Shown here one piece after another: positions 5,507 to 32,090 of a stretch of 32,090 bases of DNA. Position numbers and translations under genes: made by a program. How positions within the stretch are numbered: the stretch's first letter is position 1; every line of letters starts with the position of its first letter. The notes beneath the pieces were generated by a model. The model searched no databases. It was given only the letters and a program-made list of their open reading frames with translations, and was not told the DNA's origin. The stretch is taken from the sequence record SRR31156797_6607; one strand, written 5' to 3'.

Positions 5507-5944
5507 TTAATTCCTTATTCCCAATTCTTCTTTTTCTTGAATAAATGTTTTTTCTAATACCTCTTTAATAAATGGAGGTACAACCATTGGTTTTCTTGTG
5601 GACTTATCCACAAAAACAACTTCAGATTTTGCTTTACTTACCAATACCTTTTCTTCATTCCTCAGTTCGAACTTAAATGCAAAACGAGCACAGGGCATCT
5701 GTTCTACTTTAGTCGTAATTGTTATCAACTCATCGTATTTGGCAGGCGTTTTATATTTTATATCAAATGAAATTACGGGCAACATCACACCCTTATCTTC
5801 CAGCATCGCATCATGAATTCCTAGCTTTCTCAATAGTTCAGTTCGAGCCTGATGACAAAAACTAACATGGTTTGCATGATATACATAACCCATCTGATCC
5901 ACATCACTATAACGCGGCCTTACTTGCCAATGATCTATAATCAT
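5507..5944 (-). CDS. Acyl-CoA thioesterase, YbgC/FadM (4HBT) family
   Basis: VRPRYSDVDQMGYVYHAN hot-dog-fold motif; ATG at 5944 overlaps the upstream gene end by 38 nt. Confidence 0.88.
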   Translation of the reverse strand: MIIDHWQVRPRYSDVDQMGYVYHANHVSFCHQARTELLRKLGIHDAMLEDKGVMLPVISFDIKYKTPAKYDELITITTKVEQMPCARFAFKFELRNEEKVLVSKAKSEVVFVDKSTRKPMVVPPFIKEVLEKTFIQEKEELGIRN

Positions 5945-19267: not shown

Positions 19268-19375
19268 GACGATAAGTTTTAATTGAACATCCTGCTTTCA
19301 TTTATAAGACAAGCTGAATAAACTTTTACCCCTATCCTATTTTAAGATTTTTGATTGATGGATTGATGATTTTAC

Positions 19376-19479
19376 TTAGATCATTAGGTCTATTGTTCGT
19401 TAGATTATTAGTATTATTGTTAGACTGACAACTGTCTACTTCTAACTGATTACTGAAGGCTGCTAACTGTTAATTGAAA
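19376..19479 (-). repeat. Composite repeat element (7-mer array, 20-bp core, 8-mer array), inverted copy
   Basis: 8 x ACTGnnn at 19424-19479; core TTATTAGTATTATTGTTAGA at 19405-19424 (18/20 to the reverse complement of TCTAAGAATAATACTAATGA); TTAGnTCA-type 8-mers to the left. Confidence 0.8.
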
Positions 19480-19654
19480 TTCTGGTCTGGATATTGAACT
19501 ACATATACATGTCGGAACGGTATTTAAAACAAACTCTACTGATTAACCGACACTTAGCATATTAGTAGGCAGAAAATCATCCTACATTTTTGTAGAAAAT
19601 AGATTATCAACCTACATATAAGTGACAGATGTGTAACCTAAAAAATATATTCAA

Positions 19655-20053
19655 ATGAAAGCATGTTTACCAATTATGGGCGATTCAGCACTTACAAAAG
19701 AGCTAATGGCCAACGACTTTTACAAAGCGCAACACTATTGTATTTTCGACTTAGATACAGAAGAGTACAGTTTATATTCGCTAACTGATTCTGATTCTAT
19801 TTATATGTCGATGAGTGAAATTAAAAAGCTGGATATTCAGATAATCATCACCCCAAATCTGAGACCAATGGCTGCCAAAATATTATTTGAAAACGAAATA
19901 GAAGTATATCAGGCTGTAGGATCTGTAGTAAGCGAAAACATAGACCATTACAAAAGAGGTTTGCTGCGCGACTTTACGGCTGCCATGATTGAAAGTAAAA
20001 AAGATTGTTCTCCCGATGCTTGTTCTTCCTGCTCTTCGGGTAGTTGCAGTTAG
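19655..20053 (+). CDS. NifB/NifX-family protein with Cys/Ser-rich tail
   Basis: KACLPI...DFYKAQHYCIFD, IIITPNLRPMAAKIL...IEVY fold pattern; tail CSPDACSSCSSGSCS. Confidence 0.7.
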   Translation: MKACLPIMGDSALTKELMANDFYKAQHYCIFDLDTEEYSLYSLTDSDSIYMSMSEIKKLDIQIIITPNLRPMAAKILFENEIEVYQAVGSVVSENIDHYKRGLLRDFTAAMIESKKDCSPDACSSCSSGSCS

Positions 20054-20184
20054 CAGTCTTCAGTGAACAGTTAGCAGTGAGCAGTAGGCAGTCTTCAGTA
20101 GGCAGTACACAGTCTTTAGTTTGCAAGGAGCAGTAGGCAATATAGACTGAGAACTGTAGACTGAAGACTAAATACTGAGGACTC
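20044..20184. repeat. Palindromic 7-mer array: (nnnCAGT)x14 - ATAG - (ACTGnnn)x5
   Basis: Fills the whole gap between the convergent stop codons at 20053 and 20185. Confidence 0.9.
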
Positions 20185-20544
20185 TCAATTAAACTTTTCC
20201 GGGTATTTCATCATATAATGAAGTAATCGACCAACCTCTTCTGATAATAATATTAGTTCTTGATATTGATCTCTTGTTATAAATTCAAAAGTCAGAGCAA
20301 AATCAAGCCAAACTTGCGTCTCCGTATTTTCGCTATCAGAATCTGTAAGTTTACTTACAAAATGCTTCTTATAAACTCGCTTCCGATAAGCTTCTCCTAT
20401 ATTCGCACAGACAGAACGGGAAGATCTTCTGATTTGATCGGTTAGTGAATATTTTTCTTCTTTTGGAAATAATTTTGATATCTCATAAATATTTATGGCT
20501 AAATCAAATGCTTTCCTATAAGCTTTTAATTCCCTAAATGACAT
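20185..20544 (-). CDS. Four helix bundle protein (23S rRNA-IVP / Avd-like family)
   Basis: SFRELKAY, FPKEEKYSLTDQIRRSSRSVCANIGEAY, ETQVWLDFA. Confidence 0.93.
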   Translation of the reverse strand: MSFRELKAYRKAFDLAINIYEISKLFPKEEKYSLTDQIRRSSRSVCANIGEAYRKRVYKKHFVSKLTDSDSENTETQVWLDFALTFEFITRDQYQELILLSEEVGRLLHYMMKYPEKFN

Positions 20545-20568
20545 TATTGGTTACGTTTTGATTACCAT

Positions 20569-20576
20569 CAAACTTA
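20569..20576 (-). promoter_or_regulatory. Putative -7 promoter element for the four-helix-bundle gene
   Basis: Minus-strand TAAGTTTG (TAnnTTTG) 24 nt upstream of the ATG. Confidence 0.55.
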
Positions 20577-20604
20577 ACAAAAAAAAACGATGTTCATTGC
20601 ATTT

Positions 20605-20684
20605 TAACAGTGGGCAGTAAGCAGCAGTATACAGTGAGCATTAAACAATATAGGCAGAAGACTGCAGACTGTAGACTGAGGACT
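20605..20684. repeat. Palindromic 7-mer array: (nnnCAGT)x6 - ATAG - (ACTGnnn)x4
   Basis: taacagt gggcagt aagcagcagt atacagt gagcatt aaacaat atag gcagaag actgcag actgtag actgagg act. Confidence 0.88.
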
Positions 20685-20721
20685 AAAAAAAAGCCACACT
20701 TGAAATACAAATGTGGCTTTT
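20685..20721 (-). terminator. Rho-independent terminator of fumarase
   Basis: A8-GCCACA...TGTGGCTTTT. Confidence 0.8.
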
Positions 20722-20773
20722 GTTTATATTCTATACAATCAACTACTTGCCAATGGCTAATAGCTAAGGGCGT

Positions 20774-22381
20774 TTACTTCATATCAGCAAAGAAATCGTT
20801 TCCTTTATCGTCTACAATAATAAATGCAGGGAAGTTTTCAATGCGAATCTTACGAACCGCTTCCATTCCTAATTCAGGGAAGTCAACAACCTCTACTGAC
20901 TTAATATTTGTTTTAGCTAAAATAGCAGCTGGTCCACCTATGGAACCCAAATAGAAACCGCCATGTTTTTGACAAGCATCAGTAACCGCTTGTGATCTGT
21001 TTCCTTTGGCTACCATTACCATCGATCCGCCTTTACTTTGGAAAAGGTCTACATATGGATCCATACGTCCGGCAGTTGTTGGTCCAAAACTTCCTGAAGG
21101 CATACCTTCTGGTGTTTTTGCTGGTCCTGCATAATAAACCGGGTGATTCTTTAAATACTCAGGCATCTCAGCCCCCTCATCCAACATCTTTTTAATATTG
21201 GCATGTGCAATATCACGAGCTACAATTAGCGTTCCTGATAAGTTCAGTCTTGTTTTAATTGGATACTTTGTTAACTCCTTTAAAACATCTTCCATTGGTT
21301 GATCCAGGTCAATGTCTATGGCAGGAGCTAATTCTGGTGCTCTTTCCGGAACATATTTAGAAGGTGTTTTTTCCAGTTGCTCTAAAAAGATACCTTCTTC
21401 AGTAATTTTACCTTTTACATTACGGTCGGCACTACAGCTAACACCTAAACCAACCGGACAAGAAGCAGCATGACGAGGCATACGAATGACACGCACATCA
21501 TGAACAAAATATTTACCGCCAAACTGTGCTCCGATCTCACTTTCCTGGCAAATCTTCAACACTTTTTCTTCCCACTCTAAATCTCTGAAAGCCTGACCAT
21601 GGTCATTTCCTTCGGTTGGCAAGTGATCTAAATATCCGGCAGAAGCTTTTTTTACAGTAGCTAAAGTTGCCTCTGCTGAAGTTCCTCCAATAACCAATGC
21701 CAAATGATATGGTGGACAAGCAGATGTACCAAGATCTTTTATTTTTTCCTGTACAAATTTGGTCAGGTTCTCTTCTGTTAAAAGACTTTTAGTTTGTTGA
21801 TATAAGAAAGTCTTATTACCAGAACCTCCTCCTTTAGTTAAAAACAAAAAGTCGTATTGATTTCCTTGCTCAGCATAAATATCTATTTGAGCAGGCAAAT
21901 TGTTTCCTGTATTCTTTTCCTGAAACATGGTTTGAGGAACAACCTGCGAATAACGAAGGTTTCTATCCTTATATGTTTCGTAAATTCCTTTTGAGATGTA
22001 TTCTGCATCGCAAGCTCCGGTAAATACATTTTCACCTTTTTTACCAATAACGATAGCTGTTCCTGTATCCTGACAAGTTGGTAATTCTCCTTCTGCAGCA
22101 ACAACCTGATTCATTAACATGGTATGGGCTACAAACTTATCGTTATCAGAAGCCTCTTTATCCTCTAAAATACCCGCAAGTATTTCAAGATGTGCCGGAC
22201 GTAAATAAAAAGAAACATCAGCTATAGCTTCTTTAGCTAAAAGCTCCAAACCCTTAGGATCTACTTTTAATATTTTTCTGCCATCCACATCAATGGTAGA
22301 TACATAGTCCTTTGTTAAAAGACGATACTCCGTTGTATCCTTTTTAATAGGAAATGGTTTTTGATAGGTAAATTCAGACAT
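20774..22381 (-). CDS. fumA: Class I ([4Fe-4S]) fumarate hydratase
   Basis: [37 protein letters not shown] motifs; 535 aa. The fumA/fumB distinction cannot be made from sequence alone. Confidence 0.93.
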
Positions 22382-22461
22382 AATTATCTAAATATTTATT
22401 GTTAGTATTTAATATTTCGTGGTAAGTACAGACGATCAAACGCCCTCAAATAATAGAACGC

Positions 22462-22469
22462 CAAAGTTA
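22462..22469 (-). promoter_or_regulatory. Putative -7 promoter element for fumarase
   Basis: Minus-strand TAACTTTG about 80 nt upstream of the ATG. Confidence 0.5.
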
Positions 22470-22521
22470 AGAATTAACGGAATATATCAGCAATGAAGAG
22501 AAATGAATGTTTGATGTTTTA

Positions 22522-22626
22522 GAGCAGTAATCAGTCTTCAGTGAGCAGTTAACAGTTAACAGTAGGCAGTCAACAGTTTTCTGTCTAAGAATAATACTAA
22601 TGACCTAATAGCCTAACGATCTAATC
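22522..22626 (+). repeat. Composite repeat element (7-mer x9, 20-bp core, 8-mer array)
   Basis: gagcagt aatcagt cttcagt gagcagt taacagt taacagt aggcagt caacagt tttctgt; core at 22584-22603; ctaatgac ctaatagc ctaacgat ctaatc. Confidence 0.88.
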
Positions 22627-22709
22627 AAAATACCAAATCCAAGGTTTTCTGTTTAGTTGTACAATCGTTTAGTTGTTCAGTTGAATTATTATTGTAGTCA
22701 GTTCTGCAC

Positions 22710-22826
22710 TTCGACAAATCCCCACTTCGTCAATCTTCAGTCAACAGTTATCAGTCAGCAGTAATAACAGTAATTAGTCTTCAATCTAAGAATAATACTA
22801 ATGATCTATAGATCTAACGATCTAAA
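22710..22826 (+). repeat. Composite repeat element overlapping the nucleotidyltransferase 3' end
   Basis: Leader TTCGACAAATCCCCACTTCGTCAAT, about 7 heptamers, identical 20-bp core at 22785-22804, then ctaatgat ctatagat ctaacgat. Confidence 0.88.
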
Positions 22827-23921
22827 CAACATACCCACAGTACGTTTAATAAGGAGTGATATTCTTTTTAATACAGAACGAAATGTATTGTGTTCTTCTT
22901 TAAAAACAACACTTTTTATAAAGAGAAGCTTGTTTTTGATTCCATTGGTATTTCTCAATCGTTCCCAACCAATAGCATAACTATAGCTGGTATTTTGTTG
23001 TTCCGATTGTTGAATAAATTGAATGAATTGGTTTTTTTCTTTCGCATTTAATGAGATTCTATCGACATCTTTTATAAATGGAAATGTATAAGAAAGTACA
23101 AATTCAGTTTTCATTAACACTTCCAAGACCGTTTGCTCAATATTCAGTTTTTTAATGAATGCAATAAAATCCTGATCAGTATAAAAATAATTGGAAAGAT
23201 AAATTTCTTTAAGGTCTAAAAACCAGCTTAAACGAATTCCACCTCGTCGCATAGTATGATAAGCATGTAAGCAGAGGTAACACAAGTTAAGCATCGGAGA
23301 AAGTGTGGTAATTTGCTGATAAGATATACAGTTTTGATGAATTTCTTTATTGGATATATTTTCCTTGACATCCAAAGGAAACAGAGAGGTGTGAATCTCT
23401 ATCAATACGCCATTGTAGGTAATTCCGGGTAAATGATGACCGGTTTTTTGATCGTGTTCTGCCCATTCTGCAGCATTCACAATTCCTCCATTTTGAACCA
23501 AAAGATCAAAGGCATTTGTAGCCTTTTCATCTAATATCAGTATATCTATATCGCTCATTGGCCGTACCGATACATCCGAATAAATATACTGACTTAAAAA
23601 AATTCCTTTTAAAGGAATGACTTCAATTTGTTGATCTGATAATAATTGATAAACCTCTTTATAGACCTGAGTAATTTGCGTATTCCGCAGCAGATTCTTT
23701 AGATAATCTTTTTTTAATAATGAAAGTATGGCAGCGTCTACAGCTAACTTTTGACTTGTTGCTATCTTAAAAAGATAAGCAGAAAGTCCATTCCTATTGG
23801 CAAATTGATGCGCTTGGTTGACATCCAGGTTAGTAGGAGCCGAAACTTTATCGCCTTGCAATAACTCCAGAATATATTGTTCTTCCGGAGTAAAGGAATA
23901 TTTATTGGGGTGGCTAGACAT
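22806..23921 (-). CDS. Nucleotidyltransferase family protein (NTP_transf_5-like)
   Basis: PLKGIFL...RPMSDIDILI, IEIH, RLSWFLDL motifs. Confidence 0.8.
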   Translation of the reverse strand: MSSHPNKYSFTPEEQYILELLQGDKVSAPTNLDVNQAHQFANRNGLSAYLFKIATSQKLAVDAAILSLLKKDYLKNLLRNTQITQVYKEVYQLLSDQQIEVIPLKGIFLSQYIYSDVSVRPMSDIDILILDEKATNAFDLLVQNGGIVNAAEWAEHDQKTGHHLPGITYNGVLIEIHTSLFPLDVKENISNKEIHQNCISYQQITTLSPMLNLCYLCLHAYHTMRRGGIRLSWFLDLKEIYLSNYFYTDQDFIAFIKKLNIEQTVLEVLMKTEFVLSYTFPFIKDVDRISLNAKEKNQFIQFIQQSEQQNTSYSYAIGWERLRNTNGIKNKLLFIKSVVFKEEHNTFRSVLKRISLLIKRTVGMLFRSLDL

Positions 23922-23925
23922 TTGT

Positions 23926-23988
23926 GGGCAGTGAGCAGTGAACAGTTAGCAGTAAACAGTTAGCAGTCGGCAGTATTCAGTTAGTAGT
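23926..23988. repeat. 7-bp tandem array (nnnCAGT x9)
   Basis: gggcagt gagcagt gaacagt tagcagt aaacagt tagcagt cggcagt attcagt tagtagt, 4 nt from the ATG at 23921. Confidence 0.9.
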
Positions 23989-24001
23989 ATAATTAGTCAT
24001 T

Positions 24002-24107
24002 TGATGAATTGTTAAATCGTTAAGTCGTTTAATTGATGAACAAAAGATTAACGGTTTATCAATTCGATAAATAAACAATTCAACAAACAAATTTATCAAA
24101 TCGTCAA
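24002..24107. repeat. Inverted pair of degenerate 8-bp arrays
   Basis: tgatgaat tgttaaat cgttaagt cgtttaat tgatgaac ... tttatcaa ttcgataa ataaacaa ttcaacaa ... tttatcaa atcgtcaa. Confidence 0.65.
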
Positions 24108-25138
24108 TCCAAAACCATCTTTCGATAGACTTGCGCATATTCTTCTGCTATATAATGGGCATTAAAACGTTTGGCATTATCAAAGCCTTTTTCAATGAGT
24201 TGATCTCTAAGTTGAACATCTGTATAAATTGTATTGATGGCTTGCTGAATTTCATCAACATTATTAGGATTAACCAGTAAAGCACTATCTCCAGCCACTT
24301 CCTTCATCGCTCCTAAATTAGAAGTAATCACAGGTCGGCCTATCGCCTGTGCTTCAATAATCGGAACGCCAAAACCTTCGAAAAAACTTGGAAAGCAAAG
24401 CAAATCGCAACATACATATGCATCTATAATTTGATCGTAAGGAACATGTACCAGGTTCTCAATGGATAGCTGATATTTTTGGATTAATTCATTTTGTTGT
24501 TTTGTTAATTTTCCTACAATGATTACCCTAAGGGATGGTTTTGTATGATTTTCTTTTTCTGATGATATAAATTTATGAATAGCTTTTAATATTCCTTCTA
24601 CATTTTTATTGACCTTGGTTCCCATAATCAAAATGGAAAACGCTTGTTGTGCAGAATTTGCTTTAACAGCTACTATTTCATTTGGCAAAGGGTTATGAAT
24701 GACTTTTATTTTATCTGCCGAACACCCCGTCCACTCTAACAAACGTTGTTTAGTATGCTCAGAAATAGTGGTAATCACTTCTGCCCTTTTTACAGGAATA
24801 GTTATCCAAAGCCATTTTAAAATTCTGAATGCAAATCCTTTGTATGCTGCCAACGATTCCAGATCGTGATAGGTAATTACCAATCCTTTTTTAGGTAAAG
24901 CAAGCGCTGCAAAAGTTATATCTCCGGTTATATGATTGATAACTCCCTTGTTTCTTCTAACTTCCAACAATGCCTTAACTCTTCCCCACCAACCTGAAGT
25001 TCCGTTTTTTAATTTATACTCCCGGACATTGATGTCTTCAGGTAAATGTTGAATCACCTGTTCAAATACCTTTTCAATGCTGAAATATTGTGATTGTGGC
25101 TTTCGAAAGAAATATGTAACCGGTATTTTTATGGACAT
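24104..25138 (-). CDS. Glycosyltransferase family 4 (GT-B)
   Basis: FPSFFEGFGVPIIEAQA (E-x7-E), HITGD, TYHD. Confidence 0.92.
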   Translation of the reverse strand: MSIKIPVTYFFRKPQSQYFSIEKVFEQVIQHLPEDINVREYKLKNGTSGWWGRVKALLEVRRNKGVINHITGDITFAALALPKKGLVITYHDLESLAAYKGFAFRILKWLWITIPVKRAEVITTISEHTKQRLLEWTGCSADKIKVIHNPLPNEIVAVKANSAQQAFSILIMGTKVNKNVEGILKAIHKFISSEKENHTKPSLRVIIVGKLTKQQNELIQKYQLSIENLVHVPYDQIIDAYVCCDLLCFPSFFEGFGVPIIEAQAIGRPVITSNLGAMKEVAGDSALLVNPNNVDEIQQAINTIYTDVQLRDQLIEKGFDNAKRFNAHYIAEEYAQVYRKMVLD

Positions 25139-25139
25139 A

Positions 25140-26294
25140 CTAATTAAACAATGCTTTATAGCTATTTAGTAATTCAGGATTATGAATAAAGTTTTCTGCT
25201 TTTAACCTGGCTCCTTTGCATAAACTATCGAACTCCATTTGTTCCAAATTAATCAACTTTTCTATCGTTTTTGTCCATATAGACATTTCTGAAACAAGCG
25301 GTAAATCCCAACCACACTTTTCTTTTTCCAAATTTCTCCATGGTGTCTGATCACTGGTTAACACTGGTCTTCCCGACATAAAACTTTCCAGTATCACATG
25401 TCCAAAATTCTCTCCTCTTGATGGCAAAAACAGGATATGGTATTGTTGTATGGTCTCTCCTACCTCATCTGCATCTACCGTACCTTTATAAGTCACTTTT
25501 ATTTGAGGAGGCAGTTTACTGATAAGCAACTGACATTCCTGCCAATAGTCTTCATTATAAATCTGGCCATACAAATCCAATTCAAGCTGAAAATCCTTTT
25601 CCGGTTTTAATTCAGAAAGTTTTTCTAAAGCAAACAACGTATTTTTTTCCGGAGAGATTCTTGCCAGACTCACAAGCTTAAGCTTACCTTTTTCCTTTGA
25701 TAGATGCTTAAATGATGGCAGATCGCTTTTAGGTAAATTATCTGCAATCAATACTTTGGTTTCTTGTCCAATTGCATTTAATATATCCTTTTTTTCTTTC
25801 ACATTAGTGGCATGAAAGAACACATTCTTATATAAATTGATGAATTTAATGGCTTTTAAAAATAGTTGCTTTTTACCTGATTTCACATCAATGGCACTTT
25901 GCGCCAGCATTCCTCTCGAAGCTACTATTTTCTTTCCTTTAAACTTTTTTGCTGCCAGCAATGGTAAAATTGAGAACTTCCAGGAGTAGATACCATTGAT
26001 ATAAATAATTTCAAAATTATCAGATTGAATAATTCGTTGGTAATATTTCTTATTCTGTTGATCTCCAGATGTGTAATATACCTTTACATTATTGGAAAAA
26101 TCAGTCCATTGGTTAGGTGTAATTCCTGTATATGGTGTTGTTTCTGTATAATCAGTATTTCGGGTAACAATATAAAAATCGAATTCATCCTTTAAATACG
26201 CCACCATATTAGCCATAGACCTTACCGGACCACCGGCCTTATATCCCGGCAGAAACCAATCAATAAAAACAAGAATCTTTTTTTTGTGTTGCAT
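25140..26294 (-). CDS. Glycosyltransferase family 4 (GT-B)
   Basis: PGYKAGGP, ARISPEKN, PSRGENFGHVILES. Confidence 0.92.
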   Translation of the reverse strand: MQHKKKILVFIDWFLPGYKAGGPVRSMANMVAYLKDEFDFYIVTRNTDYTETTPYTGITPNQWTDFSNNVKVYYTSGDQQNKKYYQRIIQSDNFEIIYINGIYSWKFSILPLLAAKKFKGKKIVASRGMLAQSAIDVKSGKKQLFLKAIKFINLYKNVFFHATNVKEKKDILNAIGQETKVLIADNLPKSDLPSFKHLSKEKGKLKLVSLARISPEKNTLFALEKLSELKPEKDFQLELDLYGQIYNEDYWQECQLLISKLPPQIKVTYKGTVDADEVGETIQQYHILFLPSRGENFGHVILESFMSGRPVLTSDQTPWRNLEKEKCGWDLPLVSEMSIWTKTIEKLINLEQMEFDSLCKGARLKAENFIHNPELLNSYKALFN

Positions 26295-26328
26295 GCGTTA
26301 TTTTGTGCTTCAGTTATCGGTTTAACAA

Positions 26329-26480
26329 TTCGACATATCTAAACTTCGTTAATACCAGGTAATCAGTTAGCAATTTTCAGTCTTCAGTTAACAGTTAGCA
26401 GTCTAAAAAAAATACTAATGACCTTAGGCCCTAACCTAACGATCTAGTAGCCTAATAGCCTAATGACCTAACGACCTAAG
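26329..26480 (+). repeat. Composite repeat element (leader, 7-mer x7, core, 8-mer x about 8)
   Basis: Leader TTCGACATATCTAAACTTCGTTAAT (20/25 to the 22710 copy); core TCTAAAAAAAATACTAATGA at 26402-26421 (18/20). Confidence 0.88.
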
Positions 26481-26501
26481 TAAAATCATTCATATAAAAT
26501 A

Positions 26502-27836
26502 TCAAATCCTGATCCCCCATTGCCTCTTTATAAACCAAAGAAGACCAAATACAACAATCGAAGCTTTTAACAGGTGATTTAGTACCACCACAAACTCTGT
26601 TTCAGCTTTTACAACCTGCAGAAACAATATTGGACTCCATACCAACAGAGTAGGATAAATACTGGAAAGATGAATTAGTTTTTGCCAAAACCATGAAATA
26701 AATAATCCCCAACAAAACATAAATATCAATCCTCCCCAATATCCGTAATTAGCCCAACCTTCTCCTACAAGACTAATTCCCATACTGGTATTCTCCCCTA
26801 GTTCAAGGCCTGTGAATTTTTCAAAGTTTTCCTGACCTCCTGCTTTTTTCTTATTTGGAGCTATAATACGAGGAAGTAAGCTCGCTGTAATTGCTTCTGA
26901 AATTGTAGCTCCGTTAACAAAAGGCTGACTTTCCGGAACGTGATTCATGATGGCTGAGATAATCCAGCCCTGATTCAAACGTACATTCATATCCTCTTCC
27001 GAATTCGGCGTGAATATTGAACCATTGCTCCATTGGGAGACAGCCAAGCTCATAAATAATGAAAATTTACTGCCTTGATACTGACCGGACCAAACGATCT
27101 CCCGATATTGGCCTTTCACAGATTGTATAGTAGTTGCTAATAAAATTCCTATGATGGCATATATTAATTTAGAACCAAATTTTAGCTTTAGCTCCCTTGA
27201 AATAAAAGTAAACGTTAACAATGCCCATAATAATAAATCATGAAACATACCTGCAGCCAAAGAAGCGGCTGCTGTTAAAGACATGGTAATACCAAAAACT
27301 AACCATTTGTTTTTACTTGGTGAAAATATTAGATATATAGCACCAATATACTTAGCATTTGATAATAAAAAGAATACAAAACTAAGAGATGCCGGAATTA
27401 AGAATGAAAGATAAGGTATTATGATTCCTCCAATAACTAGTATATATGGTAACCTTGGATACTGACTAAGCAAAATATTCACCCTTTCTGCCATTTCTCT
27501 TAAATCAATCCGATCCTTATATACTTTAGCCCCTAACCGAAATAACAAAACTGCAGGTACTACAAAACTCATATATATTTCCTCATCAACATACATGTGA
27601 TATTTATAGTGATAGGCATCATTGTGATAATCTATAAAAGGACCAAGAATCCACTGCAAAGCAGCCATAGCAGTCATTAAATCAATAATTGGGATTTGTT
27701 CTCCCATATTATCAACAACCCGCAATACATAATATAAAGTAGCTCCAAGACCGATGGATGTCCAAAGAAGGTTTCCTGAAACAAGAAAAACTATACTACA
27801 AAAAACTGATAGACTTAAGATTAACTTCTTATTCAT
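26502..27836 (-). CDS. Polytopic membrane protein, probable Wzy-like polysaccharide polymerase
   Basis: Roughly 10-12 hydrophobic segments, a large loop with RLNQGWIIS and LLPRIIAPNK, GEGWANYG; lies between GT genes. Confidence 0.65.
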   Translation of the reverse strand: MNKKLILSLSVFCSIVFLVSGNLLWTSIGLGATLYYVLRVVDNMGEQIPIIDLMTAMAALQWILGPFIDYHNDAYHYKYHMYVDEEIYMSFVVPAVLLFRLGAKVYKDRIDLREMAERVNILLSQYPRLPYILVIGGIIIPYLSFLIPASLSFVFFLLSNAKYIGAIYLIFSPSKNKWLVFGITMSLTAAASLAAGMFHDLLLWALLTFTFISRELKLKFGSKLIYAIIGILLATTIQSVKGQYREIVWSGQYQGSKFSLFMSLAVSQWSNGSIFTPNSEEDMNVRLNQGWIISAIMNHVPESQPFVNGATISEAITASLLPRIIAPNKKKAGGQENFEKFTGLELGENTSMGISLVGEGWANYGYWGGLIFMFCWGLFISWFWQKLIHLSSIYPTLLVWSPILFLQVVKAETEFVVVLNHLLKASIVVFGLLWFIKRQWGIRI

Positions 27837-27991: not shown

Positions 27992-29245
27992 CTATACTTT
28001 CTTTATTTCTTTTTCAATACTTGCACATATACTTTCAAAACTCCATTTTGAGATGTGCCCTTGGTATTTCTCAGGAGTGTATGATTGATTCAGTAATTCG
28101 CTTAGGTTTTGAATTAGATTATGCATATCATTGCTTTTGAATATCCTTCCAATTTGATTTTTTACAATATCCACAGCACAACCCACTTTATCACTGACCA
28201 ATACAGGCCTTCCACAAGCCAATGCTTCGTTTACTGCTAAGCCCCAGGTTTCTTCTGGTCCCTTTGATGGTAAGCAAAAAACATCAGCCAGGCGATATAC
28301 AACAGGCATATTACTTTGATTTTGAAACGGTAGAAAGATAATATTAGTATCGTCTTTCGCTTGTTTTTTTAGCTCTTGTTCAAGTGGACCGGAGCCAAGG
28401 ATGATTAGTTTTAGTGGTGAGTTGCGAGTTACGGGTTGTGGGTTGCGGGTTGCGAGTTGTGAATGATTAAGTTCTTGGATGGTTTTTAACAAAAGCATCG
28501 GATTTTTCTTTGATTCTAGTTTACCGGCAAATAAAACCACCTTGTCTTCTAAATTAAATCCTAATCTTGTCCGCCATTGTTTTGCTTTTTCTTCTACACT
28601 AGGTTGACTTGAAAATCGTTCGTTATCGATGGCATGAGGAGCATAGATTAATTGACTTTCTTTTAGTCCATGCGCCTTAAAATAAGCTTTACTATTTGTT
28701 CCAACATAAAAGGCATTGTCGATGTATTTGTATACAAAACTAAGGATCGTTTGGCGCAGCCTATACTTGAGTAGCTGTAAAATTATTGATTTGTTGATTT
28801 GTCGATTTGTCGATTTGAATAACTGTTTTAAGCTTTGAATATCGTAGTCTAGTAATGTGCTATCTCCGCGGAACCAAATAGGTACTTTTCCCTTGAAATG
28901 CCTCATTAAGCCAAAGTGACTCTTAAACTTCCATCCAAATACAAGAATTGCATTAGGTGCAAAATTTTTGACTCTGTTTATTAAATCCGGATTATCAATT
29001 CCCTTATAGTTTTTTGATGTTGGATGCTTTGAAACATTCTCTACTAAATCATAACTATAACCTTCTAATAATGGAATATCCCACTCTACTTTATTACCGA
29101 AATCAGGATCATCATATCCATTTATTGCCTGAGGCCAGGTATAAAATACTTTTAGATCTATATGACCTCTATCTGCCAACATCTTAAACCATGGTGCATT
29201 GTATTGTATTGGATGGGTGGTGATGATAGCCAGTTTTTTTTTCAT
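27992..29245 (-). CDS. Glycosyltransferase family 4 (GT-B) carrying two repeat-encoded segments
   Basis: THPIQYNAP, FAGKLESKK, PSKGPEETWGLAVNEALA. Confidence 0.92.
   Translation of the reverse strand: MKKKLAIITTHPIQYNAPWFKMLADRGHIDLKVFYTWPQAINGYDDPDFGNKVEWDIPLLEGYSYDLVENVSKHPTSKNYKGIDNPDLINRVKNFAPNAILVFGWKFKSHFGLMRHFKGKVPIWFRGDSTLLDYDIQSLKQLFKSTNRQINKSIILQLLKYRLRQTILSFVYKYIDNAFYVGTNSKAYFKAHGLKESQLIYAPHAIDNERFSSQPSVEEKAKQWRTRLGFNLEDKVVLFAGKLESKKNPMLLLKTIQELNHSQLATRNPQPVTRNSPLKLIILGSGPLEQELKKQAKDDTNIIFLPFQNQSNMPVVYRLADVFCLPSKGPEETWGLAVNEALACGRPVLVSDKVGCAVDIVKNQIGRIFKSNDMHNLIQNLSELLNQSYTPEKYQGHISKWSFESICASIEKEIKKV
28419..28460. repeat. In-frame 7-bp array (GRGTTGY x6 = 42 nt)
   Basis: gagttgc gagttac gggttgt gggttgc gggttgc gagttgt, encoding SQLATRNPQPVTRNS. 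Confidence 0.9.
28783..28817. repeat. In-frame 8-bp array (TTGTYGAT x4)
   Basis: ttattgat ttgttgat ttgtcgat ttgtcgat ttg, encoding KSTNRQINKSII. Confidence 0.85.
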
Positions 29246-29869
29246 AACCGCATAGTTTTTTTAACCGCAAAGAACGATGAGTTGCATTTATATACCGCAG
29301 AGTGCGCAATGTATGTTTTTAACCGAATAGGCCGTAGAGTTGTTTTATTATCGCTAAGCTCGCAAAGTGTATATTAGTGTGGAATCTGCTTGATGGCTTT
29401 AGCTATTTAAGTTCAATTATAAATTATTGACTACTCTTTTGATACCTTGTTTAAGTAGCGCTACATTGAAATTAATAAGCAAACCTAATTTGTAATTACC
29501 CAATTTAAGATAGGTTAAAGTTTGTGCTAAATGAACATCATTTAAAGCTTCAACACTTTTAAGTTCAATTACCACTTTATTCTCAACAAGTATATCAATT
29601 CTGTACCCACAATCCAGGTTGACTTCTTCAAAAACCAGTGGCATTGATTTTTCTTTTTCAACTATAAAACCTTCTTGTTGAAGTTTGTAATAAAGACATT
29701 CCTGATAAGCTTTTTCTAATAATCCTGGTCCTAATGCCTGGTGTACTTTTATAGCGATACCGATTATTTTAGTGCTTAGTTCATTTTCGGTCATTGTTAG
29801 TTTGGTTTTATATCTTAAGTATGAAAAACTCTGCGCTCTCTGCGTATTCTCATTTAACTTTGCGGTTAA
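29245..29869. mobile_element. Putative inverted-repeat-bounded GxxExxY cassette
   Basis: Left end has several TAACCGCAnAG-like units; right end has CTCTGCG x2 and CTTTGCGGTTAA, the exact inverse of TTAACCGCAAAG at 29261-29272. Mobility is inferred, not shown. Confidence 0.5.
29417..29794 (-). CDS. GxxExxY protein (PD-(D/E)XK nuclease-like)
   Basis: LGPGLLEKAYQ (GxxExxY), RIDILVENKVVIELKS, AQTLTYLK, GLLINF. Confidence 0.93.
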   Translation of the reverse strand: MTENELSTKIIGIAIKVHQALGPGLLEKAYQECLYYKLQQEGFIVEKEKSMPLVFEEVNLDCGYRIDILVENKVVIELKSVEALNDVHLAQTLTYLKLGNYKLGLLINFNVALLKQGIKRVVNNL

Positions 29870-29870
29870 T

Positions 29871-31397
29871 TCAAATTACACTTTCAATCGCTTGCACCAA
29901 CTTCCTTGCTGATTCTCTAGCTGAATATTGATCAAGGGCAGATAAATCAGGTTGCCACTCTTGTGATTGTAATCTTTTAAGTAATGTTCCCTCAAAAGCT
30001 TTAACAATATCTTCCTGTTTCATTTCTGGCTCGTATCTAACCGTAAATTGATCAGCCTTACAATCTTCCATCACTTTAACAGCTGTACTTTCATGATGAA
30101 AAATACTGACTACAGGACGCTCACTTAAAATAGATTGGTATGTTTTACTGGCGGTGTAATGCTTTTCTGTACTTCCTATAACCATCACAGTGTCGGCTTC
30201 AGATAAAAAGTTTAATATATGCAGAAAAGGATATCTCTCCCTGCTTTCAAAAACTATGTCGTCTATTCCATGATCATTAGCATAGGCAGTAATTCTTTTG
30301 GCAGGATATAAACCTGTTCCAATAAACCAAAGTTGAATGTTATTATCCCAGTAATTAGCTTTTCTTAAATTAGAGATAGCCTTAAAGAAGGCATCCATAA
30401 GTACATGACTATTGGGCAGGAATGCTCCAGCGTAAAGCCAGATTTTATGTTGATCGTTAGATCTATTAGTCGTTAGGTCATTAGAAGCGTCTTTATGATT
30501 ATCTTCATTATTGCTAACTTCCGACAGGTTACTGTTTACTGGTAACCGATCACTGCTAAGCCATGGATATTGTATATTTTCTAACTTTATTTTATGGTCA
30601 TTGGGGTCGAAACCATATGGCATACCTACATGGGTGATGGGACGCTTGGTATGGGGATTGATGATTTTGCTTGTTAGATCGTTAGGTTTATAGGTCATTA
30701 GGCTATCAGTAGTATTTTGAATATTAGAATGTTGACTACTGACTAATAACTGTTGACTGATTTCAGAGAAGTTTCGTTGAATGACCGGCGCATAATAAGG
30801 CGTTGAGACTCCACTAATCACACTTACTTTTTTAATAGCAATCGGTTCTAAAAAACGAGCTACCCATTGACTAAAAACAGCTCTTATATTTCGCTGGTTA
30901 CTTAAATCACGTACCCAGGGATCTATATAGTCTATCCCATAAGGTACTTTTGTTTTATTGTATAACAAGCGACCAAATAATGCATTATAAAATGAAGGAA
31001 TAGGTAACCAAATAAAGTCTATTTCTTCTGTGGCTATAATGTGTTTGGCTTCCTTGTATAGTTGAAAAAAAGAACGTAAACCAATGTCTCCGATTAAACG
31101 AACTGAATAATTAAAAGTGATTAGCGAATGTATAATACGAAGAAAAATAAACCCTTTACGTTTCGTTTTTTGCGATTTATTTGAAGGTAAAGCATCTACT
31201 CTTGTTACCTTAAAATCTTCAGAAAATATCTTAAAAAAATCCTTATCAGGATTTTCTTCAAAATAGTTTTCTTTTACAGTAAGAACCCTGGGAGTCCAGC
31301 CAAACTCTTTTAAATAATTTCCAATTAATCGAGGACGTTGAACACCAGCCAAATTTGCAGGATACCAATGTGGATATATAATGAGAATATTTTTCAA
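29871..31397 (-). CDS. GT-B fold glycosyltransferase-like protein with repeat-encoded insertions
   Basis: AGVQRPR, DYIDPW, PYGFD, YAGAF and ASK motifs typical of polysaccharide-locus GT4-like proteins; TTG start. Confidence 0.75.
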   Translation of the reverse strand: MKNILIIYPHWYPANLAGVQRPRLIGNYLKEFGWTPRVLTVKENYFEENPDKDFFKIFSEDFKVTRVDALPSNKSQKTKRKGFIFLRIIHSLITFNYSVRLIGDIGLRSFFQLYKEAKHIIATEEIDFIWLPIPSFYNALFGRLLYNKTKVPYGIDYIDPWVRDLSNQRNIRAVFSQWVARFLEPIAIKKVSVISGVSTPYYAPVIQRNFSEISQQLLVSSQHSNIQNTTDSLMTYKPNDLTSKIINPHTKRPITHVGMPYGFDPNDHKIKLENIQYPWLSSDRLPVNSNLSEVSNNEDNHKDASNDLTTNRSNDQHKIWLYAGAFLPNSHVLMDAFFKAISNLRKANYWDNNIQLWFIGTGLYPAKRITAYANDHGIDDIVFESRERYPFLHILNFLSEADTVMVIGSTEKHYTASKTYQSILSERPVVSIFHHESTAVKVMEDCKADQFTVRYEPEMKQEDIVKAFEGTLLKRLQSQEWQPDLSALDQYSARESARKLVQAIESVI

Positions 31398-31452
31398 AAT
31401 TTATTGTTTTATTGTCTTACAGATTCTTAAAAACTTCCTTGTATTAATTAAT

Positions 31453-32090
31453 CTAAAAATCAATAGTCTTATGCCAAACATCAACTAACTTCTTATTTTC
31501 ATTTTCCCAGCTCAAACCATCTCTTATTTCTTTTGTTTCTTCACCTAAGTCTGTAAATGAATTATAAGCCGGAATACATTTTAGAATCCCCTCTTTTATT
31601 TGTTCTGCACTTTGCCCACAGACCATTCCTATTTGTGGATATTTACGAATGAAGTTTTCTTGAGCCAAGGTATTAGTTGCCAATATGAATATGCCTGCTT
31701 GTGCATATGTCATAATTTTATTGGTTAAACAAATTTGTCGATTTAGATCCGTATTGTTGAATTCTAATGCAAGTCCAACATCATGGTTTGCCAGCTCTTT
31801 GTGAAGATTTATTTGGGATAATGGAGGAATGATCGTAAGGTTAATGGGTTGAAAGGTTGATTGGTCGTAAGGTTTTAAGGTTTTAATAAAAGGTTGAATG
31901 ACTTGTTGGTTAAAATCCGAATCCATATCACCAATGATGGTTAGATTGATAGGTTGCCTGTTTGAAAGGTCATTAGATTTATAAAGAAGAGTCAGTGCTT
32001 CGAATAATTGCTCTAAACCACGACCAAATGAGATTTTTTGACTGAACCAGACTAATTTTAGTTGATTTGTTGATTTGTTGATTTGTTGAT
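31453..32090 (-). CDS. Glycosyltransferase (GT4-like), 5'-truncated by the window edge
   Basis: The frame stays open to the window end (QQINKSTNQLKLVWFSQKISFGRGLEQL...), then HDVGLALE and CLTNKIMTYAQAG; the Met at 31926 is internal. Confidence 0.8.
   Translation of the reverse strand, partial: QQINKSTNQLKLVWFSQKISFGRGLEQLFEALTLLYKSNDLSNRQPINLTIIGDMDSDFNQQVIQPFIKTLKPYDQSTFQPINLTIIPPLSQINLHKELANHDVGLALEFNNTDLNRQICLTNKIMTYAQAGIFILATNTLAQENFIRKYPQIGMVCGQSAEQIKEGILKCIPAYNSFTDLGEETKEIRDGLSWENENKKLVDVWHKTIDF
32061..32090. repeat. In-frame 8-bp array (GTTGATTT)n running off the window
   Basis: gttgattt gttgattt gttgattt gttgat. Confidence 0.9.

Follow-up and report, generated by a model that had tools for sequence, protein, structure and literature searches.

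Arrays of tandem heptamers are a feature of cyanobacteria that was described decades ago. Giant sulfur bacteria were later found to have them too, and there is agreement neither on their origin nor on their function. The short tandemly repeated repetitive (STRR) heptamers of cyanobacteria, such as CAACAGT, are counted among the repeats of the TAACTGA type. Here we analysed a stretch of 32,090 nucleotides (nt) from sequence record SRR31156797_6607, hereafter the window, in which a composite of a heptamer array and an octamer array is found between genes. Two blocks that resemble it, g1 and g2, lie inside an open frame of 508 amino acids (aa) that probably codes for a glycosyltransferase. A first-pass annotation of this DNA had proposed that the composite inserts into genes and survives in surface loops, by analogy with the Rickettsia palindromic elements (RPEs).

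Direct repeats of the heptamer TAACTGA are described in Beggiatoaceae, Cyanobacteria and five Bacteroidetes (MacGregor 2015, PMC4679880). In that paper, the forward repeats, situated just upstream of start codons, have stop codons in every frame, and the reverse repeats (TCAGTTA, encoding the peptide LSVISYQ) represent the sole orientation inside open reading frames (ORFs), mostly at protein ends. The heptamers of the composite are similar: they too are repeated in tandem, with units of 7 nt that share a CAGT/ACTG core, and their consensus TCAGTNN is the complement of the TAACTGA type. Their stop-rich strand is likewise found upstream of start codons, here with an array at 23927, at a distance of 5 nt from the start codon (23921). 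Inside ORFs only their open strand occurs; RNA structure is not predicted for them and their distribution is patchy, all as in PMC4679880. The heptamer half belongs with the arrays of the TAACTGA/STRR type.

Differences are found as well. Unlike the TAACTGA repeats as PMC4679880 presents them, the heptamers of the window make up one half of a composite, its other components being a conserved spacer, an octamer array and a leader; the word ‘octamer’ does not occur in that paper. The in-ORF copies lie in internal enzyme loops, whereas TAACTGA repeats are mainly at protein ends, and the Marinilabiliaceae, to which the window belongs, are outside the five Bacteroidetes of that paper. Furthermore, copies differ in their units, and the type of unit is specific to each species. 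Among the literature matches listed, none dealt with heptamer repeats in Marinilabiliaceae, Saccharicrinis or Carboxylicivirga, and PMC4679880 alone was closely relevant. No report joining heptameric or octameric repeats with Bacteroidetes was found in the literature.

[quoted passage not shown] Relative to RPEs as described there, the composite is also a short dispersed repeat, both intergenic and in frame inside enzymes, with a peptide that the fold tolerates; unlike them it is not palindromic, its arrays vary in length and its encoded peptide is of low complexity and poorly conserved. Like the MITEs of the same source, it is small, non-coding and multi-copy, and is sometimes fused in frame to host ORFs. 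Unlike MITEs, it has no terminal inverted repeats and no evident target duplication, and no partner transposase was seen. In Nostoc punctiforme, small dispersed repeats, which are hairpin-forming units of 21–27 nt, are said to nest in heptamer arrays, reportedly described by Elhai and co-workers in 2008; the composite would be akin to them as a short dispersed repeat tied to heptamer arrays and occasionally present inside conserved genes.

The composite repeat and its in-gene homologs

The window, with a G+C content of 33–38%, comes from a marine bacterium of the Marinilabiliaceae (Bacteroidota). The closest related locus, L001, is part of a metagenome-assembled genome of an uncultured Saccharicrinis sp. 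It is collinear with the window at 93–98% nucleotide identity and carries a 98%-identical ortholog of the 508-aa protein.

The composite is made up, in order, of an optional leader of ~25 nt, an array of TCAGTNN heptamers, a conserved spacer of ~20 nt and an array of CTAAYGAY octamers. The 20-nt spacer TCTAAGAATAATACTAATGA is present four times in the window at no more than two mismatches, against an expected 0.02 occurrences. Four intergenic copies and the two in-gene blocks were counted over the 32-kb window. On the plus strand, i22a (22539..22642) comprises heptamers, the exact spacer (22584–22603) and octamers. On the same strand, i22b (22709..22844) starts with the 5′ leader TTCGACAAATCCCCACTTCGTCAAT, followed by heptamers from 22737 and the exact spacer at 22785–22804, and i26 (26330..26503), a segment of ~172 nt, also has the leader, with its spacer at 26402–26421. 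The fourth copy, i19 (19367..19470), is on the minus strand, with its spacer at 19405–19424. The leader common to i26 and i22b reads TTCGACAWATC...ACTTCGTYAAT, and the tail AAGTAAAATCAT is common to i19 and i26. Array lengths differ in every copy and the units vary within each array, so that none of them is a simple array of a single heptamer. Tandem Repeats Finder reported arrays of period 7, 14 or 21 with a CAGT-core consensus at 20046–20120, 22539–22578, 22737–22762, 23924–23988 and 26363–26404.

The first in-gene block, g1 (30655..30761, minus strand; 30673–30760 as delimited in the first-pass annotation), encodes residues 213–247. Its heptamers are TCAGTCA, ACAGTTA, TTAGTCA and GTAGTCA, its spacer region contains AATACTACTGA, and its octamers CTGATAGC, CTAATGAC, CTATAAAC and CTAACGAT are followed by the tail AAAATCAT. 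The spacer core AATACTAMTGA of the composite is also found inside the host gene, at 30706–30716. The second block, g2 (30450..30558, minus strand), is more degraded and encodes residues 281–315. It harbours the heptamers CAGTGAT, CGGTTAC, CAGTAAA and CAGTAAC, a decayed spacer and the octamers CTAATGAC, CTAACGA, CTAATAGAT and CTAACGAT. The minus-strand sequences at 30760–30673 and 30558–30452 read as the first-pass annotation had quoted them, and its count of 24 matches between the first 26 nt of the former and positions 22737–22762 was recovered by alignment. The peptides it had given are indeed encoded in the open frame, at residues 215–243 and 281–315; the predicted loop peptides of the 508-aa protein are SQQLLVSSQHSNIQNTTDSLMTYKPNDLT and SSDRLPVNSNLSEVSNNEDNHKDASNDLTTNRSND.

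Using an nhmmer profile of 97 columns built from the four intergenic copies only, we searched the window and 80 loci. The profile matched g1 at 30760–30673 (E 7.4e-7, model positions 5–78, envelope 30773–30654) and g2 at 30558–30450 (E 1.5e-5, model positions 3–84). The matches thus span the two arms and the spacer in g1 as well as in g2. Apart from these, matches below an E-value of 1e-3 were limited to the four training copies (E 5.7e-22 for i22a), one intergenic copy of L001 and the two orthologous in-gene blocks of L001. In local alignments with each of the four intergenic copies, g1 scored 46–70 (z 12.7–20.0), with maxima of 25–29 among 200 dinucleotide shuffles, and g2 yielded z-scores of 4.9–9.8. 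The low G+C content of the window and the low complexity of the peptides might suggest a chance likeness between AT-rich sequences. This reading is scarcely credible, and we rejected it in view of the number of spacers relative to expectation, shuffle z-scores of up to 20 and the profile E-values obtained over the 81 sources. On these comparisons g1 and g2 are homologs of the intergenic composite and, as far as sequence can tell, diverged copies of a dispersed repeat specific to this lineage.

The composite does not fold into a hairpin: RNA-folding z-scores range from −1.79 to +0.70 for the four intergenic copies on both strands, and they are −2.14 for g1 and −0.46 for g2. A hairpin or terminator reading of the composite was ruled out by the values for the intergenic copies. 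No inverted pairs were found in 26320–26515, around i26, and 22690–22850, around i22b, contains short internal palindromes only. The composite nevertheless shares with RPEs the presence of both intergenic and in-frame copies, and a position tolerated by the fold according to the model described below. Thus, the analogy drawn in the first-pass annotation holds for the outcome, an in-frame passenger peptide, and not for membership. The likeness is one of outcome only because the composite lacks both the hairpin and terminal inverted repeats.

Searching Rfam over the whole window yielded no family at gathering score, and just four matches far below threshold (E 0.39–0.78) were obtained within 19300–26600. 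No transposase is encoded within the window. A blastn search of 22700–22850 against phage and plasmid collections returned no match, with the proviso that the low-complexity filter of BLAST may hide matches, and a phage or plasmid origin was dropped as a candidate following that search. In addition to the four intergenic copies, the segment 23924–24033 consists of a heptamer array 5 nt upstream of the start codon 23921 (minus strand), followed by an octamer array, AATCGTTA, without the usual spacer. The different octamer array and the lack of that spacer indicate a second type of composite.

Two dispensable loops of the host protein

The ORF that hosts g1 and g2 (29871..31397, minus strand) is open over its full length from a TTG start; that the 508-aa frame is intact had been stated at first pass. 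Searches of Pfam and NCBIfam with the 508-aa protein gave no matches. We collected 1616 homologs, which are typically 415–445 residues long. An AlphaFold2 model was built on alignment A1, which comprises 24 of 121 listed sequences, with a mean predicted local distance difference test score (pLDDT) of 79.8. Using Foldseek, the model was matched to MshA (3c48/3c4q), BshA (6n1x) and OtsA (1uqu) with E-values of 4e-12 to 4e-11, and with query-normalised template-modelling scores of up to 0.54 relative to solved GT-B enzymes. It shows the two Rossmann-like halves that match those enzymes. The model thus supports a GT-B fold glycosyltransferase, a label that rests on the fold match to retaining enzymes; the ‘glycosyltransferase’ of the first-pass annotation is backed by these fold matches and not by Pfam or NCBIfam. 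The adjoining genes code for GT4 glycosyltransferases, and the gene cluster looks like a surface-polysaccharide locus.

The regions of the model with pLDDT below 50 are residues 161–167, 223–241 and 284–314. The second of these is inside the g1 block and the third inside the g2 block, which agrees, as a prediction, with the earlier proposal that the segments map to disordered loops. The two loops flank a conserved core, HVGMPYGFDPNDH (30594..30635, minus strand; residues 255–268). Its invariant columns in alignment A1 are M259, P260, Y261, G262, F263, D267 and H268, and it is modelled as a strand (E255–258) and a helix (H265–269).

For a comparison of loop lengths, anchor motifs were matched in 45 of the 81 sources, and the other 36 were left out. 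In 32 of the 45 anchored orthologs, loop 1 has 8–9 residues and region 2 has 25–26. Two other sources have a non-periodic loop 1 of 27 residues that does not match the array-encoded residues. The loops are expanded in the remaining 11 sources, all of which are on the Marinilabiliaceae side of the family, and the Flavobacteriaceae rows of alignment A1 have gaps at both loop sites. At lags of 7 and 8 nt, all 11 expanded sources have autocorrelations of 0.36–0.47, as compared with 0.26–0.30 at lags 4, 5, 10 and 11; the values at lags 7 and 8 are 0.17–0.32 in the 34 unexpanded sources. In the expanded loops the DNA has heptamer and octamer units that differ from one species to the next, often in the heptamer-then-octamer order, and the frame that spans the loops is intact in all 12 orthologs from which it was extracted. 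As anticipated at first pass, the segments correspond to gaps in most orthologs, and those devoid of the 7/8-nt periodicity simply lack these residues rather than conserving them. Both segments are therefore located in loops and are dispensable.

Other features of the host protein were noted. Compared with most orthologs, the protein has a third insertion, LPSNKSQKTKRKGFIFLRIIHSLITFNYSV, encoded at 31097–31190 (residues ~70–100). It is present only in the seven closest of the 24 aligned sequences, is partly hydrophobic and is modelled as two helices with pLDDT ~70; by eye it has no obvious 7/8-nt periodicity. At the C-terminus (29871–29894), the protein ends in ...QAIESVI, and its L001 ortholog reads SAIESVILINRKVK, with seven additional residues, the two genes differing by a 3-nt change at codon 502.

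Own-genome units, turnover and the probable route into the gene

We consider it probable that g1 and g2 are old, diverged, in-frame copies of a dispersed array repeat, carried as disordered passenger loops. Short stretches of homology would have allowed the sequence to be copied from the genome's own pool of arrays, through recombination, gene conversion or template switching, and slippage and unequal recombination would afterwards remodel the copied arrays. Survival inside a gene would require that the open strand be the sense strand, that the length keep the frame and that the site tolerate extra residues, here the two loops that flank the HVGMPYGFDPNDH core between the GT-B halves. Between genes, the stop-rich strand would be read on the mRNA; the other strand can be open and codes for a polar peptide rich in Ser, Gln, Asn, Thr, Asp and Leu.

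This reading is consistent with the strand usage of the copies. In each of the four intergenic copies, none of the three frames of the antisense (..ACTGA) strand is free of stops. A fully open frame on the sense (TCAGT) strand is present in only one of them, i19, in which it encodes QLAAFSNQLEVDSCQSNNNTNNLTNNRPNDL, similar to the in-gene peptides; g1 and g2 have exactly one open sense frame each, which is the one used. As we read the gene map, the orientation of the intergenic arrays places their stop-rich strand on the mRNA of the gene downstream. In another Saccharicrinis sp. (L003), the unit is CTCANNA. Its open strand is used in all seven in-gene clusters, and the complementary, stop-rich strand in four of the five intergenic clusters. 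As a separate observation, positions 2531–14076 of L003 harbour CTCANNA arrays in frame in at least four long open frames within 21 kb.

The inserts share words with their own genome. Because 10-mers proved too noisy, with a background of ~10%, sharing was assessed with 12-mers, in 11 of the 81 sources and over ~20 kb per related genome. In the window, 25 of 215 insert 12-mers recur in the flanks, all of them within the four composites, as compared with 24 of 1257 for the rest of the gene, and none is shared with L002, L004, L007, L052 or L008. Likewise, 29 of the 120 insert 12-mers of L003 recur in its own flanks, and 15 are found in L002. Loop length is correlated with the density of arrays outside the gene (Spearman 0.46, p 0.0016, with no correction for phylogeny).

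Alternatively, the loops might have arisen in place, by polymerase slippage in old low-complexity linkers, with a likeness to the composite due to convergence under one mutational bias. In line with this, all 11 expanded sources carry arrays at the same two loops, and part of g2 aligns with its counterparts in L004 and P0003, which suggests inheritance. Between close genomes, a neighbouring GT4 gene has changed by exactly three heptamers, and relative to L001 the window has 39 nt more in an intergenic heptamer array (23953–23992). Nevertheless, slippage leaves unexplained the non-repetitive spacer and the heptamer-spacer-octamer order that g1 and g2 have in common with the intergenic copies. 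Adjacent units of g1 and g2 are not identical and hence are poor slippage substrates, and the insert 12-mers recur only in composites of the same genome. An origin in place is thus quite improbable.

The comparison with L001 indicates how these arrays turn over, as breaks in collinearity coincide with arrays. The ~172 nt of i26, leader included, are absent from the orthologous site of L001. This filled/empty pair reveals no clear target duplication; its junction lies in repetitive sequence that allows several placements. In L001, i19 is replaced by ~208 nt of unrelated sequence, and a single chimeric copy corresponds to i22a and i22b, with the left half of the former and the right half of the latter joined in the common spacer. 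This chimera points to unequal homologous recombination, or to a duplication, between copies. In contrast with the intergenic arrays, g1 and g2 have the same lengths in the two genomes, with no gaps over the gene. Differences from L001 affect seven of the 195 insert nucleotides, as compared with 17 of 1329 in the rest of the gene (Fisher p 0.026). The four changes in g1 are all nonsynonymous, whereas the events elsewhere comprise five that are nonsynonymous and 10 that are synonymous (p 0.033). These differences suggest that g1 and g2 are under relaxed constraint.

A non-autonomous transposable element of the MITE or RPE kind, mobilized by a recombinase encoded elsewhere, could also have given rise to g1 and g2, through two chance in-frame insertions at defined ends. 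Consistent with this, i26 is missing at the same site of a genome that is 93–98% identical, the leader is conserved between i26 and i22b and the tail AAGTAAAATCAT between i19 and i26, and as many as four intergenic and two in-gene copies are found within 32 kb. We consider such an element fairly unlikely, in view of the lack of terminal inverted repeats, of a stable hairpin and of a convincing target duplication at the i26 junction. Moreover, array lengths differ in every copy, there is neither a transposase in the window nor a match to phages or plasmids, and replacement rather than simple insertion is seen at i19 and at 28413–28462. As regards the route of arrival into the gene, copying from the array pool thus appears most likely, and cutting by a transposase at defined ends less likely. 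Recombination or template switching is favoured because there is no hairpin, no inverted ends and no clear target duplication, and because the copies recombine with each other and sequence is often replaced, not inserted.

Lastly, the arrays might be functional. In contingency loci, simple-sequence repeats in the genes of surface glycosyltransferases bring about phase variation. The arrays in the window are reminiscent of these, as tandem units whose length is not a multiple of three inside glycosyltransferase genes of a polysaccharide locus; selected flexible linkers would be another possible function. The long ORFs of the window that contain in-frame arrays are three adjacent glycosyltransferase genes (27992–32090), the sole exception being a trivial 15-nt TTTTATA repeat at 5749. 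A perfect octamer is repeated 3.8 times in frame at 32061–32090, and related polysaccharide loci have many in-ORF arrays (e.g. 14 of 25 in L003). However, unlike those of contingency loci, the units of g1 and g2 are imperfect, and no frame-switching variant was found between the two genomes compared, in which the sole in-gene difference of an array is 21 nt and keeps the frame. With the frame across the loops intact in all 12 extracted orthologs and nonsynonymous changes accumulating in g1, functional arrays are very improbable.

A number of observations weigh against the copying of array sequence into the gene as we propose it. No filled/empty pair was found for g1 or g2, both of which are also present in L001, and we thus infer arrival by copying from similarity only; of the initial claim that the element inserts into genes and survives in surface loops, the loop location is upheld and the insertion itself is a deduction. 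The i26 copy has fairly sharp ends, and a leader in common with i22b, as expected of a mobile unit. The 12-mer and periodicity tests cover ~20 kb per genome and include no correction for phylogeny, and the numbers of substitutions compared are low. Despite its high density of arrays (217 bp per 10 kb), L037 has unexpanded loops. The start of g1 (I-[AS]-x-x-L-L) and the SSD[RK]L...NE[DN] part of g2 are common to orthologs at 66–74% identity, as illustrated by the g2 segment SSDRLPVNSNLSEVSNNEDN of the window and its counterpart NSDKLSILNDQLTANDEN in L004; residues of P0003 also align with part of g2. Furthermore, the model places a helix (H214–220) at the start of g1, which is thus not wholly disordered. 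Because parts of them are common to orthologs at 66–74% identity, the loops appear to be old, at least partly inherited vertically, and remodelled, not freshly inserted, and turnover within old arrays may account for as much as fresh insertion.

Neighbouring arrays and wider meaning

Two arrays are present in frame in the neighbouring GT4 gene (27992..29245), both detected with Tandem Repeats Finder. The first, at 28413..28462 (minus strand), consists of ~6 CAACYCG units coding for ATRNPQPVTRNSP and falls in an indel-variable loop of alignment A2. It differs from L001 by an indel of 21 nt (3 x 7), and by replaced, non-repeat sequence, L001 being the shorter. The array of the window is probably derived, since the short form is common to L001 and the L002 ortholog. 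No other copy of it was found in the window, and among the 80 loci only L003 and L037 have one. The second array, at 28788..28817 (minus strand), comprises 3.8 ACAAATCR units coding for STNRQINKS and lies within a segment of ~24 residues that is missing from six of the 16 aligned orthologs. The octamer ATCAACAA/ACAAATCR (Q-I-N-K-S-T-N) is found in frame both there and at 32061–32090, that is, in two other glycosyltransferase genes, and also in loop 1 of the orthologs of the 508-aa protein in L004, L047 and P0007. The same array peptide therefore appears in different genes and genomes. A partial ORF at the window edge (31453..32088, minus strand), whose product has no Pfam match, harbours in-frame arrays of period 8/16 at 31833–31886 and ~31940–31980, with peptides such as QPINLTII and KSNDLSNRQPINLT.

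Two genes close to arrays were also noted. The first (20185–20544, minus strand) codes for a 119-aa protein of the 23S-rRNA-intervening-sequence/bAvd-like family (PF05635, E 4e-31). It is located between inverted heptamer arrays (20040–20185 and 20600–20700), both of which fold (z −2.2 to −3.3), and the whole block of ~560 nt is absent from L001, where a heptamer array and a terminator are all that is found at that place. The second (29417–29794, minus strand) lies between two glycosyltransferase genes and codes for a 125-aa protein of the PDDEXK_3 nuclease superfamily (PF13366, E 1e-41). The alignment of the window with L001 is lost beside it, at 29367–29417.

More speculatively, heptamer/octamer array elements might constitute a separate class of bacterial DNA that propagates itself and is neither a hairpin nor a transposon. 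They would be strand-asymmetric, with the stop-rich strand in use between cistrons and the open strand repeatedly copied into genes, in which it would give rise to new disordered segments of protein. The unit type of each species would be kept by concerted evolution, perhaps driven by dedicated machinery linked to the small bAvd-like and PDDEXK_3 genes located among the arrays. We regard this proposal as distinctly doubtful.

The locus represents a tractable comparative case, with a defined composite whose copies turn over between genomes that are 93–98% identical. It also offers in-frame copies fixed in dispensable enzyme loops, and the same loops are expanded by arrays, species by species, across the family. 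If this pattern is general, bacterial proteins would routinely gain new disordered segments from such arrays. In the polysaccharide loci of Bacteroidota the arrays would be a practical nuisance as well, by inflating gene lengths, adding inserts of low complexity and causing breaks in assemblies. Should array elements prove to be a self-propagating class, they would provide a steady supply of new loops in surface-polysaccharide enzymes, as well as a route into the unexplained STRR/TAACTGA repeats.

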